Source of the DNA: Myxococcota bacterium
GTDB taxonomy: Bacteria; Myxococcota_A; Polyangia; Polyangiales; Sandaracinaceae
Direction: 5' to 3'
Assembly (NCBI GenBank): GCA_036149055.1
Contig: JAYZQJ010000128.1
Coordinates: forward strand, 32,001-96,000
Length of the DNA: 64,000 bases
Positions 1 through 8,066 of this stretch are shown here, in pieces. The notes under the pieces were generated by a model. The model ran no database searches and was not told the DNA's origin. It saw only the letters and a program-made list of their open reading frames with translations. Numbering within the stretch: position 1 is the stretch's first letter; the number at the start of each line of letters is the position of its first letter. The position numbers and the translations under genes were made by a program.

Positions 1-1561
1 TGGTGTACTGCCGGACCTCGGGCTCCGGGCTCTCGGTGAAGCCGACGACCAGGCTCAGCGTCCGCGGGCTCCGCATGTTGCCGATCGCGCCGAAGACGGG
101 CCTCAGATCGAGCGGCTCCTCGGCGGTGGCCAGCCCGTCCATGATGGCGTTCTCCGCCACCCCGCCGATGGCGTCGTCGCTCGGGTGCTGCCCGGCGATG
201 GCGCCCACCGCGAGCATCGCCTCCCGGGCGAGGATGCGCTCCGACGGCTCGTCGCTGGTGATCGCCGCCGCCTTCGACGCCATGTACTGCGCGTCGCTCA
301 CGTCGACGTCGTCTCGGTCGATCAGCGCGAACATCGCTCGCGTCCGCTCGAAGCTCGGCGCCGCCTCGTCGTGCATCACCTCTCGCAGCACCCCGAGGGC
401 CTCGGGGGTACGGGTGCGGGAGAGCGCCACGTAGGCGCCCGCGGTCGCGTTGGTCGGGAGCTCGCCGTCGCGCATCGACCGAACGAGCCGCGCGGCCGCC
501 TCGGGGCGCGCCTCGAGGTAGTCCGTGAGCGGCGGCCAGGTGTCCTGGAAGCCGACGTCTCGCTCGACGCGGCCGAGGTAGCTCGCCAGCGTCTGGGGAT
601 AGGTGTGCTGTCGCACCGCGTCCTGACGGCGACGATCCGCGAGGGTGAGCGGCCGGCCCGCGCGGCGCTCGAAGGTGCGGGGCAGGAGGTTCTCCCAGAC
701 GTACGCGTCGAGCTCGCGGGCCGCGCCCCGCATCACCGAGCCGCTCGAGGCGAGCGCGCGAGCGCTGACCCGGGTGCGGGTGAAGCCGCCGTCGCCGCGA
801 AGCTCCAGCGTCGACTCGAGGTCCGCGAAGAAGGGCCCCTGGCCCAGCTCGATCACCGCGTGACTCGCGACCGGCGCGGCGGCGAGCTCGGCCGGCTGCC
901 AGAAGCGGTCGTATCGCGTCACCCGACGGAGCACCTGTCGCGCCGAGGCGTCGCCGGCGGGCTCGAAGGTGGCCGTGAACGCGCCGAGCGCGTCCATCCG
1001 CTCGGCCGAGACCCGGTCGGTCTCGGGCCAGACGAAGCCGAGCTCCGCCGAGAGCGACTGCTGGATGCGCGCGTCGGCGCGGAGGGTGTCCTCGTGGCGT
1101 CCGAACGCCTCGATCGCGCAGTCCTCTCCGACCCGCAGGACGAAGGGAGCGAGCAGGCGGTGCGCCCCATCGATCGCGCTCGCCTCGAGGCGCGCGATCC
1201 GGGCGAGCAGCACCGCGCCCTCATCCGACGTCGGTCGCAGCGTCTCGAAGTGGAGGCGGAACGCCGCGCGCTGCTCGAGCTCGAAGGACCGTCGCTCCGC
1301 TCCCGGGACATCCGAGCGCTCGGCGCGGGTGACGACCTCGACCTCGTACGCCAGCCGGTCGTCCGCCGAGAACCGGCAGCCCCAGCTTCGGCCCGACGAC
1401 GCGTGCGACGACGGGTCGGCGCTCGGCCGCGGGGCCGCGAAGACGGGCGTCGCGGGCTCGGAGGTCGCTCCGGTCGGCGCGGACGAGTCCCCGGCGGCGA
1501 AGTAGACGATGGTTGCGGCTGCGGCCAGCGCCGCGCCGATCGGGAGGGCGTGTCTCCTCAT
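1..1561 (-). CDS. Secreted/membrane-anchored beta-sheet + HEAT-like helical repeat protein (possible Vitellogenin_N/LLTP-like); 3' end beyond window
   Basis: Absent from the ORF track because it has no stop in the window. ATG at 1561-1559 overlaps the TGA of the upstream gene (ATGA). Manual translation is open to base 1: MRRHALPIGAALAAAATIVYF..., a beta-rich region, then helical repeats ending ...LRPVFGAIGNMRSP...SPEPEVRQY. Confidence 0.8.
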   Translation of the reverse strand, partial: MRRHALPIGAALAAAATIVYFAAGDSSAPTGATSEPATPVFAAPRPSADPSSHASSGRSWGCRFSADDRLAYEVEVVTRAERSDVPGAERRSFELEQRAAFRLHFETLRPTSDEGAVLLARIARLEASAIDGAHRLLAPFVLRVGEDCAIEAFGRHEDTLRADARIQQSLSAELGFVWPETDRVSAERMDALGAFTATFEPAGDASARQVLRRVTRYDRFWQPAELAAAPVASHAVIELGQGPFFADLESTLELRGDGGFTRTRVSARALASSGSVMRGAARELDAYVWENLLPRTFERRAGRPLTLADRRRQDAVRQHTYPQTLASYLGRVERDVGFQDTWPPLTDYLEARPEAAARLVRSMRDGELPTNATAGAYVALSRTRTPEALGVLREVMHDEAAPSFERTRAMFALIDRDDVDVSDAQYMASKAAAITSDEPSERILAREAMLAVGAIAGQHPSDDAIGGVAENAIMDGLATAEEPLDLRPVFGAIGNMRSPRTLSLVVGFTESPEPEVRQYT

Positions 1562-4500
1562 CGGAACCTCTGGAAGTAGGGGAAGCTCTGCTCGTAGAGG
1601 CTGCCCTCGGCGATCACGTGCCCCTGGTACTTGATGATCGGCCAGCCGAAAGTGAGCGTGGTGAGGAGGAGCGGGATGCGGACCTCGGCCCGGATCTCGC
1701 CCTCGAGCGCCCGGACCTCCCACGGCACCTCGACGCCGTAGGCGCCCGCGATGCCGGTGGAGTCGTCCGCGAAGGTGAGGTGGTGGATCGTGTTGCTCAG
1801 CGTCGGCGTGAGCTTCGCCGAGATGAAGGTCACCGACGCCGTCACGCAGACGCCGGCTTCGTCGCTCGGCGAGCAGACGGCGAGGCCGACGCCAGCTCCG
1901 GCCGCGAGCTCGACGCCGAGCGACATCCGGAAGAAGTCCGCCTGACGCACCCGGTCGAACTGGCAGACGAAGGGGAGCTCCTCCGTCATCGGGGTCGGCC
2001 TGAGGGCGGGGGCGGCAGAGCCCTCGACCGCGACCATCGCGAGCCCGGTGGGCGTCGTGCCGGTCGGCATCAGCGTCCCGCGCGAGAAGCTGCGCGCCAG
2101 GCCCCCGTCGACGTAGGTCAAGGCGCCCGCGCCAGTACCGGCCGCGAGCTCGCCCCCGTTCGACAGCCACCGCATCGAGGTCTGCAGCTCGGAGCCGCAG
2201 CGGGTGGCGTCGTAGTTGGAAGCGCACTGCGCGTCCGGGTGGTAGGTGGCGCTCTGCCCGCCCACCCAGGCGGCGACGCCCGCCAAGGCCGCGAGCGCCT
2301 CGGCTTCGGCCGCGGACTGCGGCTCGGCGAGACGGCCGCCGAGCTCGGCGCACGCGTCGGAGGCCGCCTGGAACGCGGCCGTCTCCTCCCCCGACGGCAC
2401 CAGGCAGCCCTGCGCGATCGACGCGCCGGCGGGGTAGGCGGTGTCGGGCGCGGCCCCGCCGACCGTCTGGATGCAAGGGAACGCCTCGTCGTCATCTTCG
2501 CTGGGCGCGAACTGGGCGCCCAGCTTGAGCGCCACGCCGACCCCCGCCGAGACGACCGCGACGACCGTGACGGGCAGTGGGCCGATGGTGAGCTTGGTCT
2601 TGACGCCCACCGCGAGCCCGAGGCCCTCGACGCCCGCGTACCGGCCGCGGGACCACTCCCGGATGAGCGGCGCCGGAGGCGTCCGGCGGGAGGCGTTGAG
2701 GGACGCGATGATCGGATCCCATGGGGGCTCGATGGAGACCTCGACCGGCTCCGACGCGTCGACCGCGGGCGGGCGCGCCAGGTCGGCCTCGATGCGGTCC
2801 ATCGTCATCACGCCGGCGACCTCGACCACCTGCCCGGTCTCGGCCGCCATGACGTCGCTGGAGCCGCGTTGGTGCTGGCTGGACGCGTCGACCGCGTAGA
2901 GCGACTGCGCGAAGTCTCCCCCCGTCGCGGCGTCGGCGGAGAAGTCGTTCTCACAGCCCGCGTTGGTGCACGCCTGGGCGACGCCTTGATCCGTGTCGGC
3001 CGAGGCGTTCGTCGCCCGGTCCCCGCGGCCCTCGCCGCCGCCTTCCCAGAGCGGGCCCTGACCGACCACGGGCTCCACGAAGCGGTCGCGGACGATGCGG
3101 AGCGAGGTGCTCAGTCCCCGATACTCCCAGGGCACGCGGATGGGCCCGGTTCGCGCGCTGTCTCGGAGCACGTAGTAGACGAGGTCCACGGGGAGGTCGA
3201 CGTCTTCGTAGGCGTCGGGGAGCTCCATCAGCGTTCGGCGCCCCTCGCGGGAAAGGGAGAAGGTGCTTCGGGCGTTGAAGCTCCTCCCGTCCCAAGGCAT
3301 CTGCGCCACGCCGAGCGGGATCGGGGAGCGATAGGGCTCGCCCTCCAGCGTCGGGATGCGAAGCGAGCCGGCGACCCGGAGCACCGGGTCGGCGGGGCCG
3401 TCCGGCGTCGCCCAGGAGTAGGGGTTGGCTGGGTTGTCGCCGATGACCGAAATGTCCGACTCCACCTCGATGACCACCTCGCGGTTGGGCCGCGTGTTCA
3501 CCGAGAGCAGCGGCTCCACGACGCGCGCCGCCTCCGGGAGAACGATGACGTGGGAGGCGGGGCCGCCGAGCAGATCGATCCGTGAGTCGGAGACCACGCG
3601 CTGGAGGTAGTAGCCGGCGAGGTCGTATCGCTGGGTCCGCGCGTCGTAGAAGAAGGCGGGCGGGTTGATGGCGCACTGGTCGTCGCCCGATTGGTAGTAG
3701 GTGCCCGAGGTCAGCGAAGCCAAGAGCCGCGCGCGGTCGATACGCCCAAGCCGCCCACAGGACAGCGGTATGCGCGCGCTGAGGCGCTCGCCGTCGGCGT
3801 CGGTGGGCGCGATGACGCGCCGACCGATCGAGCAGACGTGGGTGTAGCGAGTGGTCTGCGACGCCTGGTCCCACTCGGGTCTCGCGATCCAGAGGTCGAC
3901 CGGGATCGACTCCTCTGTCGTGTTCCGGACGAGGAGGCCGAACTCGGCCCCGGGCGCGTAGTGGTCTCCTCCGTCGGAAGAATAGTTGATGCTGCGGCCG
4001 TCCTCTCGGAGGACCTCCGGACTGGGGATGATCTCGAACCCGGTGATGCCGAGGGTCCCGCCGGGCATGGGCCGGCGGCCGTCCGAGCCGGTGATGACCT
4101 GCATCGTCTCGTCGGCCACGCAGTTCATCATCTCGTCGCGGCGCGAGGGGCCGTAGCAATGCGCGGGCACGCACGCGCTCCGAGGCGCGCTCGGGGTCAC
4201 GGCGCGCTCCGGCGGGTTGCAGGTCACCTGCCAGGTGTCGATGCCGTCGGTGTCGTCGAGGGGCGCCGCGGTGTCGTAGACGATCTGGTATCGTCGGGGG
4301 GCGCTCGTCTCGGGATCGATGTCGCCCAGGCCGCAGTTCCAGCGCACCGTGCGGGCGCCCGGGTTGTCGCAGGCGACGGTGAAGTCGCAGGTCCCGCGGC
4401 TCCCCGCGCAGGCACGGCGCGCGGCGGCCGTCGACGCCTCGGCGGTCTCGGTGCCCTCGTCGTCGTCGCAGGTCACCGCGTCGATGTCGATCGCGACGGG

Positions 4501-4740
4501 GATGGGCAGGGGCCCGTCGAAGGTCGCGTCCCCGTCGTCGACGTCGAGCCGATCGGGGTTCCTCAGCTGCTCGTCGATGAGCTCGGCGGGGGGGTGGGTC
4601 CGGTAGTTCCACCCGATGAAGCCCTCGGGGCACTCGAGGGTCGGGTCGAGCCCGCTCTCGTCCGCGGTCACGTCGTCGCCGGCGCAGCCACTGACCGCGA
4701 GGCCCGCCAGCAGCGTCAGGCGCATCATCGTTCTGCTCAT
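1558..4740 (-). CDS. Large lipoprotein (~1060 aa) with Cys-rich N-terminal part, C-type lectin-like domain and beta-strand-rich C-terminus
   Basis: 3' part of ORF 1558..5490. Start re-placed at MSRTMMRLTLLAGLAVSG-C (lipobox) after AGAGG; GTG at 4746 is an alternative. CTLD-like motifs FQAASDACAELGGRLAEPQS, AWVGG, RWLSNG, LPFVCQ. Confidence 0.8.
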   Translation of the reverse strand: MSRTMMRLTLLAGLAVSGCAGDDVTADESGLDPTLECPEGFIGWNYRTHPPAELIDEQLRNPDRLDVDDGDATFDGPLPIPVAIDIDAVTCDDDEGTETAEASTAAARRACAGSRGTCDFTVACDNPGARTVRWNCGLGDIDPETSAPRRYQIVYDTAAPLDDTDGIDTWQVTCNPPERAVTPSAPRSACVPAHCYGPSRRDEMMNCVADETMQVITGSDGRRPMPGGTLGITGFEIIPSPEVLREDGRSINYSSDGGDHYAPGAEFGLLVRNTTEESIPVDLWIARPEWDQASQTTRYTHVCSIGRRVIAPTDADGERLSARIPLSCGRLGRIDRARLLASLTSGTYYQSGDDQCAINPPAFFYDARTQRYDLAGYYLQRVVSDSRIDLLGGPASHVIVLPEAARVVEPLLSVNTRPNREVVIEVESDISVIGDNPANPYSWATPDGPADPVLRVAGSLRIPTLEGEPYRSPIPLGVAQMPWDGRSFNARSTFSLSREGRRTLMELPDAYEDVDLPVDLVYYVLRDSARTGPIRVPWEYRGLSTSLRIVRDRFVEPVVGQGPLWEGGGEGRGDRATNASADTDQGVAQACTNAGCENDFSADAATGGDFAQSLYAVDASSQHQRGSSDVMAAETGQVVEVAGVMTMDRIEADLARPPAVDASEPVEVSIEPPWDPIIASLNASRRTPPAPLIREWSRGRYAGVEGLGLAVGVKTKLTIGPLPVTVVAVVSAGVGVALKLGAQFAPSEDDDEAFPCIQTVGGAAPDTAYPAGASIAQGCLVPSGEETAAFQAASDACAELGGRLAEPQSAAEAEALAALAGVAAWVGGQSATYHPDAQCASNYDATRCGSELQTSMRWLSNGGELAAGTGAGALTYVDGGLARSFSRGTLMPTGTTPTGLAMVAVEGSAAPALRPTPMTEELPFVCQFDRVRQADFFRMSLGVELAAGAGVGLAVCSPSDEAGVCVTASVTFISAKLTPTLSNTIHHLTFADDSTGIAGAYGVEVPWEVRALEGEIRAEVRIPLLLTTLTFGWPIIKYQGHVIAEGSLYEQSFPYFQRFR

Positions 4741-4775: not shown

Positions 4776-7700
4776 TCAGGGCACGCATCGGATCACCACG
4801 CAGCCGTCGCCACCGTACGTCGTGCCGACGCCGCCGGGCTCGCTCGCCGCCGCCGATCTCCGCGCGGTGCAGAGGGCGTAGTCCGGGGACCCCGTGTTGA
4901 CGGCGTTGCCGGTCGACGAGCTCATCGGGGTGAGCCCTCCGCTGAGCACCCCGAAGGCGCCGCCGCTCGCGTCGGTGAAGGTGAAGGCGGAGCCGCCGAC
5001 GCCGCCGGGCTCGCCCGCGCCGCCGCCGCCGCCGCCGTCTCCCGACGGCGCATCCTCGCCGCTCGGGCCGGTGGCTCCGCCGCTGGTGGCGTCGCCGCCG
5101 CTGCCGGCCGGCGCCGCGAACGCGTCGCTGGAGCCGCCGCCTCCGCCGGGGACCGAGAACTGCAGCGTCGCGCTGCCGGTCTGGCGGACGGAGGTGAGCC
5201 CGCCGCCGCTGCCCCCGCCGGCGCTGAAGCTTCCGTCGCCGTCGCCGTCGCCCCCGCTGGCGGGGGTGCCGTAGAGCGAGCCGATCGACGCGGTGCCGAA
5301 GACCGCCGACACCCCGGCCATCTCGCCGCCCTGGCCGACCCACACCGTGAACACGTCGCCGGGCGTGACCGGGAGCGTGCCCTCCACGTAGCCGCCCGCG
5401 CCCCCGTAGGAACGGTCGGGGGGGAAGCCGGTCTCCTGACCGCCCGCGCCGCCGCCGGCGCCCCACGCGGCCACGAAGACCTGGGTGCACATCGCGGGCA
5501 CGGTGAAGGTGCCGGACGGCGCGACCCCGTCGGCGGTCGGCACGTCGAAGACGGCCGAGCAGCCGCTCATGCAGCTCGGCGGGGGTCCGCTGTCCACGCC
5601 GCTGTCCACGCCACTGTCGGCCACCATGCCGGCGTCACGCCCCCCGTCGACGCCGGCGTCCATGCCCACGCCAGCGTCCCCGGTCGGGCGGCTCGTGACC
5701 GAGCAGCGCAGCGCGACGCTCTCGGGGCGCGAGGGCATGCGGAAGCCGGTGTCGGTCACCAGCGCGCCGCCAACATCGAAGTTGCAGGTGGTGTCCACCA
5801 GCGAGCCCCCGTAGGTGACGGGATCGGGCTGCGTCGGGATCGTGAGCCGGTAGCTCACCGCGCTCCCGAGCGTGAACAGCCCGTTCTGGTTGAAGCTCAC
5901 CGTGTCGGCGGTCCCGTCGAGGTCACGGGTGATTCGTAGGACCGCGCCGGGCGGGAGCCCCTGAACGTTCGCCCGGACCGCGGCCGTCGCGTAGGAGCAG
6001 TCGATGGTCGCCACGTCGAGGCGGTCGAAGTGGACCGTTCCGGAGAGGTTGGGGGAGCCGTCACCCGTCCACCCGAAGGCGGCGCGCGTGAAGACGCAGC
6101 TGAGCCCGGGGTCGCTGTTGTCGAGCCGCAGGTCGTAGGCGTAGCCGCGCGGCAGCACGTGCGTGAAGTCCGCGCCGGTCGACGGAGACAGGGCCTGGCG
6201 GGTGGAGACGCCGTCGACTGTGACGTCGATGCCCAGCGTCGAGCCCGGCGAGAGGCCGCGAACCAAGAACCTCGGCGAATATGTGGCTCGGCACGTCGCT
6301 TCGACGCAGATCCCGTCCTCACAGTCCGAGCCCTCGCGACACGAGTCATGCACTATGCAGCGTCCACAGAGGGTGCCTCCGCAGTCGATGTCCGACTCGG
6401 TCCCGTTCAGAATGCGGTCCTCGCAAGTATCGTTGCGGCACGTCCCCCGCGAGCAGAATCCGTTGCAGTCCGCGTTCTCCTCGCATGACAGGCCCACGTC
6501 GCAGCCGCCGCAGACGGCGCCGCCGCAGTCCACGTCGGTCTCGCCGGTGTCCTGGACGCCGTTGGCGCAGAGCTGCGAGAGCTCGACGCCGGTCGTCTCG
6601 CCGGTCTCCGGGTCGACGGAGACCCGGCTCGTGTCCTCGCCGTCGCTGGTGTAGCTGGTCTCGCTGGTGGTCGCGGTGCCGTCGGGCTCGCGCCGGGTCA
6701 CGGTGACCTGCGTGGTCTCTCCTTCGTCGACGCCGGTGCTGTCGACCTCGACCTTGCCCTCGGGGGTGAGGCGCACCGAGACGCTGTCCGCGCCGTCGTC
6801 GACCACCACCGTGACCTCGACCTCGCCGTCTTCGGTCTGGTAGGTGACCCGCGCCCGGACCGGGGTCCCCGATCGCGAGGCGACGGTCAGCTCGCCGCCT
6901 TCGGTGACCCGGACCGTGTCCTGCTCGGAGGCGTCTCCGTCGATGCCGGTGATCTCCACCGAGAAGTGGCCGGGGCGGTTCACGACGACGCTGCCGCCGC
7001 CCTCCTCGTCCATGCCGATCCCGCCCGAGTAGGTGAGCTCGACGTCGCTGCCGCCGCTGGCGGGGATCGTCATGCGCATCGGGCCGCGCGAGCCGCAGCG
7101 GCAGCTGGCGAACACCGGCACGAGCGCCGCGCCGTTCTCCTCGATGACCGCGCCGCCCTGGACGCCGACCCGCGCGTCGCCGACCGACGCGAGCGCCGAC
7201 AGGCCGCCCTCGGTCGAGACGGAGATCCCGTCGCGCTCGAAGGGCGCGGGCAGCACCCCGCGGCGGGCCGCGATCGGCGCGAAGTAGAGCGCGTTGCCGT
7301 TCTCTCGCGTGCCCTCGTAGAGCACGGAGCTGCCGTCGGGCAGCGGCATGTCGTAGGTCCAGGTGCCGGCGCCCTCGTCGATGCGGATCACCTGCTCGAG
7401 CTGCGGGCGGTTGCTGTCGTAGACGCGGAGGAAGTAGAGGTCGGCGCGCTCGCCGCGGTAGTAGCCGATGGGCACCAGGGCGTGGGCGAAGTCGAACCCG
7501 GCCTCGGTGCGTCGCGCGATCGCCAACCGGTAGCGCTCGCCGCCCTCGGCGAAGGCCTCCTCGACGAGGAACTGCATCACGTCCTCGGCGATGAAGCGGC
7601 GGTTGGTCGTGGGGGGCAGCGCGTACTGCGACGCCGACCAGTAGGCGAGCTCGGCCTGCAGCGCGAGGTTGCCGGGCAGCACCAGCTCCGCCGCGGTCTC

Positions 7701-8066
7701 GGCGCCGAAGTCGGACGGGGAGAGGTCCCCGGTCGCGAACAACATCGAGAGGATCGCGAAGCCCTCGCTGTAGCCGGCCCGCAGCGCGATGTTCGACTCC
7801 GCGATCCAGGCGGCGGCCTCGGGCGTCGGCGTGCAGGGGAGCGCGCCCCCGACGCAGGTGACGTCGGCGCCGAACATGCGCGCCGCCAGATCGGCGCTCA
7901 TCGGCATCCCGCGGTCTTCGAGCGCGAAGTTCTCGAAGGTGAAGGCGTCGCGCCGGAAGTCGTACTCCCAGGCGAGATCGGGGGGATGAGAGTCCCCCGA
8001 GCAGCCGGCCCCGGCGAGGGCGATGAGAAGCAGTAGAGACGAGGCGGTGAAGCGGGGTGAGGTCAC
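4776..8066 (-). CDS. Large surface lipoprotein (1096 aa): papain-like N-terminal domain, myxobacterial Cys-rich repeats, DAG/DSG linker, C-terminal glycine-rich domain
   Basis: Lipobox LAGAG-C; two C-x-NG/DR-x-ET/SD-x-DCGG repeats; C-terminal VFVAAWGAGGGAGG...GGAGGYVEGTLPVTPGDVFTVWVGQGG typical of ALK/LTK-like Gly-rich domains. Confidence 0.85.
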   Translation of the reverse strand: MTSPRFTASSLLLLIALAGAGCSGDSHPPDLAWEYDFRRDAFTFENFALEDRGMPMSADLAARMFGADVTCVGGALPCTPTPEAAAWIAESNIALRAGYSEGFAILSMLFATGDLSPSDFGAETAAELVLPGNLALQAELAYWSASQYALPPTTNRRFIAEDVMQFLVEEAFAEGGERYRLAIARRTEAGFDFAHALVPIGYYRGERADLYFLRVYDSNRPQLEQVIRIDEGAGTWTYDMPLPDGSSVLYEGTRENGNALYFAPIAARRGVLPAPFERDGISVSTEGGLSALASVGDARVGVQGGAVIEENGAALVPVFASCRCGSRGPMRMTIPASGGSDVELTYSGGIGMDEEGGGSVVVNRPGHFSVEITGIDGDASEQDTVRVTEGGELTVASRSGTPVRARVTYQTEDGEVEVTVVVDDGADSVSVRLTPEGKVEVDSTGVDEGETTQVTVTRREPDGTATTSETSYTSDGEDTSRVSVDPETGETTGVELSQLCANGVQDTGETDVDCGGAVCGGCDVGLSCEENADCNGFCSRGTCRNDTCEDRILNGTESDIDCGGTLCGRCIVHDSCREGSDCEDGICVEATCRATYSPRFLVRGLSPGSTLGIDVTVDGVSTRQALSPSTGADFTHVLPRGYAYDLRLDNSDPGLSCVFTRAAFGWTGDGSPNLSGTVHFDRLDVATIDCSYATAAVRANVQGLPPGAVLRITRDLDGTADTVSFNQNGLFTLGSAVSYRLTIPTQPDPVTYGGSLVDTTCNFDVGGALVTDTGFRMPSRPESVALRCSVTSRPTGDAGVGMDAGVDGGRDAGMVADSGVDSGVDSGPPPSCMSGCSAVFDVPTADGVAPSGTFTVPAMCTQVFVAAWGAGGGAGGQETGFPPDRSYGGAGGYVEGTLPVTPGDVFTVWVGQGGEMAGVSAVFGTASIGSLYGTPASGGDGDGDGSFSAGGGSGGGLTSVRQTGSATLQFSVPGGGGGSSDAFAAPAGSGGDATSGGATGPSGEDAPSGDGGGGGGAGEPGGVGGSAFTFTDASGGAFGVLSGGLTPMSSSTGNAVNTGSPDYALCTARRSAAASEPGGVGTTYGGDGCVVIRCVP

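Follow-up and report, generated by a model that had tools for sequence, protein, structure and literature searches.

A probable two-gene split relative of the large lipid transfer proteins in a Myxococcota bacterium: a candidate envelope module

Organization of the locus

Genes B and C of a Myxococcota bacterium (GenBank assembly GCA_036149055.1; source genome 9.9 Mb, 73% GC) are the subject of this work. They lie in a 64,000-nucleotide stretch of contig JAYZQJ010000128.1 (C128:32001-96000), which as a whole is called the window below, and are the middle two of four consecutive genes, A, B, C and D, on the minus strand. Gene B encodes a lipoprotein with a strand-rich C-terminal domain, and gene C a protein whose predicted fold resembles the front half of the large lipid transfer proteins (LLTPs), such as MTP, vitellogenin and apoB. 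Their features are as follows.

Window 4740-1558, minus strand: gene B, a lipoprotein of 1060 residues with a variable N-terminal passenger and a conserved C-terminal amphipathic beta domain that carries an inserted lectin domain
Window 4684-4740, minus strand: predicted lipoprotein signal peptide of gene B with lipobox Cys19, from the sequence; three nearby in-frame ATGs are alternative starts
Window 2506-2982, minus strand: first part of the gene B beta domain (~residues 587-745), from model strands; family hidden Markov model (HMM) match at 580-827
Window 1951-2454, minus strand: C-type lectin-like domain inserted in the gene B beta domain (~residues 763-930); Pfam Lectin_C, E 0.005-0.012, and structure matches
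Window 1561-1944, minus strand: second part of the gene B beta domain (residues 933-1060), with long amphipathic strands; predicted local distance difference test (pLDDT) 78-92; family HMM match at 941-1040
Window 1558-1561, minus strand: ATGA stop/start overlap of genes B and C, read from the sequence
Window 1561-1, minus strand, continuing 401 nucleotides outside the window to C128:31600: gene C, 653 residues (1-520 in the window), with a predicted Vitellogenin_N-like half-barrel and helical clamp
Window 1490-1549, minus strand: N-terminal hydrophobic segment of gene C (~residues 5-24), a probable signal anchor, from sequence and model
Residues 23-53 of gene C, minus strand: Pro/Ser/Ala linker, of low confidence and disordered in the model
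Window 695-1378, minus strand: N-sheet of gene C (residues 62-289), modelled as 12 strands around a helix at 161-172, with Cys62 and Cys148
Window 1-643, minus strand: helical superhelix of gene C (residues 307-520; to 638 in the genome), from the model; HEAT_2, E 1.3e-9
Window 94-74, minus strand: FGAIGNM motif of gene C (residues 490-496), within the helical superhelix

The overlap between B and C would couple the translation of the two genes, and lipidation of B is expected at Cys19. Gene C was missed by the open reading frame track because it has no stop codon inside the window. It had been recognized in the original prediction, and the ATGA coupling, the signal or anchor segment, the beta-rich region with two Cys and the helical repeats with FGAIGNM described there are all present. 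Absent from that account were the C-type lectin domain (~763-930) between the two strand stretches of B and the flanking lipoprotein genes A and D. Genes B, C and D each occur as a single copy in the source genome (tblastn).

Predicted fold and relatives of gene C

The model of gene C, built from 127 aligned sequences, reached a pLDDT of 90.3 and a predicted template modelling score of 0.80. Cys62 and Cys148 are retained in 122 and 126 of the 127 aligned relatives, respectively, and Asn495, which belongs to FGAIGNM, in 125. The original prediction took this motif to be the putative equivalent of the "ALGN" motif of LLTPs. A hydrophobic N-terminal window was found in 92 of 122 full-length relatives and a lipobox-like motif in four; in most of them the N-terminus looks like an uncleaved membrane anchor followed by a flexible linker, while at some loci where C comes first it looks cleavable (anchor and cleaved signal were told apart by eye).

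At the sequence level, HEAT_2 is the only Pfam family in gene C and also occurs in nine of the 11 proteins first aligned, searches of PDB sequences returned HEAT-type proteins only, and NCBIfam gave no match for B or C. A profile search collected 1008 proteins at E <=0.001, the best 150 of which are all of <=711 residues. The nearest clusters of gene C in the Atlas (0.97-0.98) are bacterial, and Vitellogenin_N is present in 39-75% of their members; Planctomycetota, Pseudomonadota and Myxococcota are the phyla best represented in related clusters. Vitellogenin_N itself (PF01347, curated cut-off 24 bits) scores above the cut-off in nine of 54 scanned C relatives (54 of the 127 aligned), these being more distant ones, and reaches E <=0.05 in 23 of the 54.

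In the available text of two structural accounts, the N-terminal half beta-barrel of LLTPs consists of ~13 strands around a long helix (PMC6717300, PMC12214520); MTP is divided there into a barrel (21-297), a helical domain (298-603) and a lipid domain (604-884) (PMC6717300). The model of gene C resembles the first two of these domains. A Foldseek search, which had been suggested along with the original prediction, placed MTP, lipovitellin, bee vitellogenin and apoB at ranks 1-11 (E from 3e-14 for MTP to 2e-5), so that the matches are not just generic HEAT/ARM proteins; repeat proteins appeared only after rank 11, at E 8e-5 or worse. A search of 48,161 chains that is independent of Foldseek ranked lipovitellin (Z 17.0) and apoB (Z 16.6) as the top two, and its four LLTP rows were the sole ones of 50 to cover both domains of C. 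Residues 63-649 of C align with 17-637 of lipovitellin (Z 17.0, 526 aligned, root-mean-square deviation (rmsd) 10.5), residues 62-628 with 26-613 of MTP (Z 16.1, 498 aligned, rmsd 11.9), and residues 59-391 with 41-393 of the apoB barrel in 9bd8 (Z 16.8, 283 aligned, rmsd 8.8). All three alignments begin at the first strands of the known proteins, and helices 307-638 of C are collinear with MTP to 613 and with lipovitellin to 637. The lipid domain of MTP starts at 604 and C aligns to 26-613; therefore C stops at the lipid-domain border.

On one alternative view this likeness is superficial: gene C would combine HEAT repeats with a barrel of other origin, and B and C would be co-regulated envelope proteins with no tie to the LLTPs. 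Such a view draws on an identity to LLTPs of only 10-14%, on the high rmsd values (9-16 A), on HEAT/ARM repeat proteins that reach Z scores like those of the LLTPs, on the helical part of C only, on an autotransporter barrel that matches the N-sheet of C at Z 11.7, and on the HEAT-only outcome of the PDB sequence searches. We consider it improbable in view of the collinear two-domain match over ~500 residues to four LLTP families, the scores above the PF01347 cut-off in C relatives together with the Vitellogenin_N content of the nearest Atlas clusters, and a pairing of B with C that persists when the gene order is reversed. The model thus supports a Vitellogenin_N architecture for gene C, consisting of a half-barrel and a helical clamp, that goes beyond generic HEAT repeats, and a designation as HEAT repeats only was rejected because of the two-domain match to LLTPs.

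The beta domain of gene B

B proteins that adjoin relatives of C range from 349 to >3,300 residues and have in common a strand-rich C-terminal domain, for which a profile of 301 positions was built. The remainder varies widely. SUEL lectin, LamG, CBM96 or Dictyostelium-type repeats are carried by other B proteins (a Pfam match was obtained in five of 14 scanned), and Lectin_C was found in seven of 34 aligned B tails, the C-type lectin insert being present in the window's subfamily and in some other B proteins. In the model of B, the lectin part resembles C-type lectins with Z up to 10.7 (rmsd 3.7, 119 aligned), and proteins of the C-type lectin-like fold make up 48 of the top 50 structural rows, covering model positions 213-393. 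In close relatives, the flanks of the window's B align well and most of its middle (~residues 232-578, window ~3009-4045) has diverged too far for an alignment at 90%, which suggests a hypervariable or swapped module.

The amphipathic strand motifs quoted for B in the original prediction are all present (residues 718-735; 942 onward). Both stretches are more amphipathic than shuffled sequences, with z 3.4 for residues 699-745 and 3.2 for the second part of the domain; residues 587-670 are no more amphipathic than shuffles (z 0.4). Among B domains, z exceeds 3 in 35 of 40. The model of B is of moderate confidence (pLDDT 67 overall, 78-92 in the last sheet), and its strands are 15-29 residues long.

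Strands of this kind could also belong to an outer-membrane beta-barrel or to a membrane-inserting hairpin bundle, serving as anchor or pore, with the lectin in an outer loop and C as an assembly factor or guard. Besides the amphipathy, this view can point to two structure matches of the modelled sheet of B, one to the TamAB hybrid barrel (Z 8.4, 108 aligned, rmsd 3.7) and one to CarO (Z 8.2, 159 aligned, rmsd 5.5); OMP_b-brl was matched in one of 40 B domains at E 0.2. However, Z values near 8 are common background according to the tool's own note, and membrane-spanning beta strands are typically shorter than the 15-29 residues modelled here. A C-terminal aromatic beta-signal is a feature of barrels inserted by BAM and of autotransporters; the last residue is F, W or Y in only 12 of 81 B proteins, the window's B ends in Arg, and many B proteins run on past the beta domain into Cys-rich tails. 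A membrane barrel thus has, in our estimate, a low probability, and an autotransporter assignment of B was rejected for want of a conserved C-terminal beta-signal.

A different relationship is suggested by Pfam. PF01347 and PF09172 are consecutive in vitellogenin, according to the available text of PMC10799875, and PF09172, the vitellogenin open beta-sheet, has a curated cut-off of 23.7 bits. When 40 insert-free B domains were scanned against all of Pfam, PF09172 was matched in three of them (best E 1e-4, 22.1 bits) and was the sole family matched more than once; among 44 further B domains it was matched in one, at E 0.31. The regions matched are positions 128-148 and 201-289 of the model. A scan of five genomes, two of them of one genus, gave four weak PF09172 matches, which form collinear pairs and all fall within B domains. 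Homology of the B beta domain to the lipid-cavity sheets of LLTPs is therefore suggested by sequence comparison, below the cut-off, and not established.

Other searches with B gave little. No LLTP stood among the top 50 rows of the fold searches with the B model, in which C-type lectins filled the lists and the sheet drew generic barrels; B-domain profiles had no meaningful match among PDB sequences; and the Atlas search with residues 600-1060 returned low-score lectin clusters only. A complex prediction for C 61-622 with B 622-1059 scored 0.00 in both runs and is uninformative by the tool's calibration, the chains being trimmed, the B alignment having 34 rows and the controls unfolded.

Pairing of genes B and C across genomes

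The association of the two genes was surveyed in 401 genomes of the Myxococcota phylum, in which the B profile had 117 matches in 65 genomes. Of these matches, 62 lie <=7 kb from a listed C match, with B upstream in 52, downstream (C first) in seven and on the opposite strand in three. All of the other 55 were fetched, and a C gene, in a few cases partial, was present on the stretch in 42. Gene adjacency, one of the checks proposed at the outset, was accordingly found for 104 of 117 B matches, or for 82 of 95 when the 22 profile seeds are left aside; for six of the 13 unpaired matches, the contig or the fetched stretch ends shortly downstream. Counted from the other side, there are 89 C matches (84 at E <=4e-16 and five weaker long ones, short HEAT-only matches having been dropped), of which 61 have a listed B, nine more have one on inspection, six have none on the stretch read and 13 were unfetched. 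B and C thus co-occur almost obligately, as separate frames in the loci read. Across 76 pairs, the similarity matrices of B and C are correlated (rho 0.50), an effect that common descent by itself could produce. At locus L006 (~7480-7830), a stretch of N, presumably a gap in the assembly, breaks the B gene close to its 3' end.

The system is patchy among kin: neither gene was found in a genome of the same genus, and the gene C query gave distant matches in two of 24 genomes of the same family. Relatives with these genes are filed under the names Sandaracinus, Polyangiales, Myxococcales and Myxococcaceae.

The main rival reading makes C a dedicated periplasmic folding or export chaperone whose clamp shields the hydrophobic face of the beta domain of B, a surface adhesin of lectin type. 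The LLT-like fit of the two chains would be kept and no lipid would be moved. Passengers of such different length, bearing lectin modules, accord with a client of this kind, as do genomes with as many as five B matches, almost every one examined having its own C, the patchy occurrence, and the diverged middle of B between well conserved flanks; the barrel and helical domains of MTP have moreover been proposed, in the available text of PMC6717300, as its apoB-binding parts. We hold a chaperone role to be somewhat unlikely: the family to which B is weakly linked by sequence is one of lipid-cavity sheets, and its domain has the size of the missing MTP domain, for which a reconstituted pocket is a better fit than a generic client.

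Comparison with known systems

Among known systems, the large subunit of MTP (6i7s, 8eoj) is similar in having a half-barrel round a helix and a helical clamp. Its lipid domain of 281 residues, which is missing in C, is about the size of the conserved domain of B, and both systems are exported from the cytoplasm. Unlike MTP, the bacterial system is encoded by two genes, and C is probably anchored in the membrane and has a different Cys pair. No protein disulfide isomerase partner was seen, PF19444 has no match in B, and B is enlarged by sizeable, variable passengers and by the lectin insert.

Vitellogenin or lipovitellin (1lsh, 9enr, 9ens) is the best overall structural match of C, and shares PF01347 with relatives of C and, weakly, PF09172 with relatives of B. 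The bacterial pair differs in consisting of two chains, and no large funnel, DUF1944 or vWD and no yolk or receptor context was seen. In apoB-100, the barrel and the first helical region (beta-alpha1; 9bd1, 9bd8) align with C at Z 16.6-16.8, but the bacterial pair has no long lipid-wrapping belt, and nothing points to a large lipoprotein particle. The fold of B ~763-930 is that of C-type lectins such as ASGPR (6yau) and SP-A (1r13), at Z ~10, although the bacterial domain sits inside the beta domain of a lipoprotein. By its definition, the LLTP family does not include the B-C pair, which is classed as a split relative: the sheets would be in a separate chain, the shared disulfide is absent and C misses the PF01347 cut-off.

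A proposed split lipid-transfer module

We judge the chances to be slightly better than even that B and C form a split, envelope-located, MTP-like large-lipid-transfer (LLT) module that binds lipid. B would supply the missing lipid-holding half, and it fits this role because C ends at the lipid-domain border of MTP, the B domain is similar in size to the domain that is missing, and the two genes nearly always adjoin. According to this proposal, both chains would be exported by Sec, and C would be tethered at the inner membrane by its uncleaved N-terminal helix and flexible linker. The sheets of B would then dock into the clamp and the barrel pit of C, as the C- and A-sheets do in MTP, and would close a narrow, MTP-like hydrophobic pocket for one or a few lipids or acyl chains. 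The lipid anchor of B, together with lectin-type modules that vary between B proteins (a C-type lectin in the window; SUEL, LamG or CBM96 elsewhere), may aim the module at glycans. The likeliest job of the LLT module would be to load or exchange lipid in the envelope, in the manner of MTP, while B is exported or displayed; it would then be an accessory and not a main route of lipid traffic.

Several observations weigh against a lipid-transfer module of this kind. On the side of C, beyond the high rmsd and the comparable scores of repeat proteins given above, PF01347 has no match in gene C or in its 10 closest relatives, and its matches in more distant relatives are mostly over the helical part. 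Nor, as judged from spacing, is the disulfide of the LLTP barrel, which is common to MTP (174-194), lipovitellin and apoB in the available text of PMC6717300, reproduced in C, where Cys62 and Cys148 are 86 residues apart and both lie before the central helix. Two full-length orphan C genes (L043 and L053) have no B gene on the fetched stretch.

On the side of B, the PF09172 matches are below the cut-off and concern just four of 84 B domains, mostly of one close subfamily, with no match to the window's own B in the Pfam scan. Across the 401 genomes, one of 61 weak PF09172 matches falls in a listed B domain, and PF19444, the MTP lipid-binding family, has no match in a listed B domain. Twenty of the weak PF09172/PF19444 sites were fetched for inspection, and four weak PF09172 matches lie at the ends of long proteins, in tails resembling B, where the fetched stretch holds no C gene; amphipathic composition may thus be partly behind the PF09172 signal. 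At L132, L133, L134 and L135, open frames of up to 4647 residues are strand-rich and end in B-like amphipathic sheets with weak PF09172 matches. When its subfamily is left out of the profile, the window's B aligns with just 28 bits, in two collinear segments (580-827 and 941-1040), and the profile-profile comparison gives a probability of 53% (E 1.4e-4) for the last 80 columns. On account of these two matches, it is a diverged member of the B-domain family.

The original prediction of two halves of an LLT module has therefore fared unevenly: for the C half, the fold matches bear it out, and the B half is suggested only, PF09172 staying below its cut-off. Lipid binding itself and assembly into a surface particle that scavenges lipid from prey are unsupported, the particle being a sub-case of the LLT module with no evidence of its own. 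A predatory setting, which had been invoked as plausible, is not needed either, and a predation-specific role was rejected, since related clusters are also found in Planctomycetota and Pseudomonadota. The patchy distribution led us to reject a core envelope transporter as well.

The putative operon and neighbouring genes

Two further lipoprotein genes complete the locus.

Window 8066-4776, minus strand: gene A, a lipoprotein of 1096 residues with Cys-rich repeats and a Gly-rich tail; the first gene of the putative operon, found only in the window's subfamily
C128:31603-31097, minus strand, outside the window: gene D, a lipoprotein of 168 residues directly downstream of C

The junction of C and D is likewise an ATGA overlap. 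D follows C in nine loci and A precedes B in five (the window and four others), and both genes are confined to the window's subfamily. In a close relative of the source organism, contigs from RNA libraries (two runs of one sample) are single pieces of 9.3-9.4 kb that span A-B-C-D into the next gene. They start ~40 nucleotides before gene A, with a depth of 27-33 compared with 0-5 on the flanks, and a DNA contig extends past them on both sides. These contigs are a weak hint of an A-B-C-D operon and cannot prove a single transcript. A scan for promoters and terminators gave no signal above chance inside the operon.

The N-terminal domain of gene A (residues 1-330, window 7077-8066) is conserved and has no Pfam match; it contains a His-Ala-Leu motif, followed further on by Tyr-Asp. 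These motifs may resemble those of papain-like peptidases, with a Ser at the place expected for the catalytic Cys. A paralogue lies on another contig of the genome (C97, E 7e-29). The Cys-rich repeats (~residues 500-640, window 6150-6570) have no Pfam name and recur at at least eight other sites in the genome. Gene D has a CC motif and two more conserved Cys, and was found only behind C genes of the window's subfamily; it matches a pullulanase carbohydrate-binding-type domain weakly (E 0.1), and CBM_20 was matched in one of nine D proteins (E 0.18). The next gene downstream (C128:30469-31044), partly covered by the same RNA contigs, appears by eye to encode a rhomboid-type membrane protease.

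Origin and significance

In the available text of PMC12214520, LLTPs are described as an animal solution to circulatory lipid transport whose emergence is tied to multicellularity, and that of PMC10799875 places their ancestor before the cnidarian-bilaterian split. We found no account of bacterial LLTP homologues in a literature search that left most subscription journals outside its reach, so an earlier mention is possible. PF01347 labels on some bacterial proteins are already in databases; the front half is thus visible, and is undiscussed in the literature searched, while the B domain has no family of its own. New here are the pairing count, the sub-threshold link to PF09172, the inserted lectin domain and the four-gene context.

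Tentatively, we raise the possibility that the B-C pair is a working two-chain lipid-transfer module that preserves the ancestral state of the LLTPs. MTP, vitellogenin and apoB would then have arisen through fusion of a C-type gene with a minimal B-type gene, and bacteria would have diversified B into lectin-tipped, lipid-loaded envelope proteins. The C-then-B order that such a fusion requires occurs at seven loci, and the shortest B proteins have 349-381 residues. A weak search of longer proteins with the B profile found 14 bacterial-type proteins, none with PF01347 or HEAT, and no fused form was seen among them.

If the LLT module is real, a widespread bacterial version in two genes, cut at the border between helical and lipid domains, would place the origin of the fold much earlier. 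Its halves, small and separately expressible, would lend themselves to studies of clamp-sheet assembly and lipid loading. It would also represent an undescribed system for lipid handling or protein display in the envelope of Myxococcota and other bacteria. As far as the predicted folds go, bacteria seem to possess, in two pieces, a design that has been considered an animal invention.

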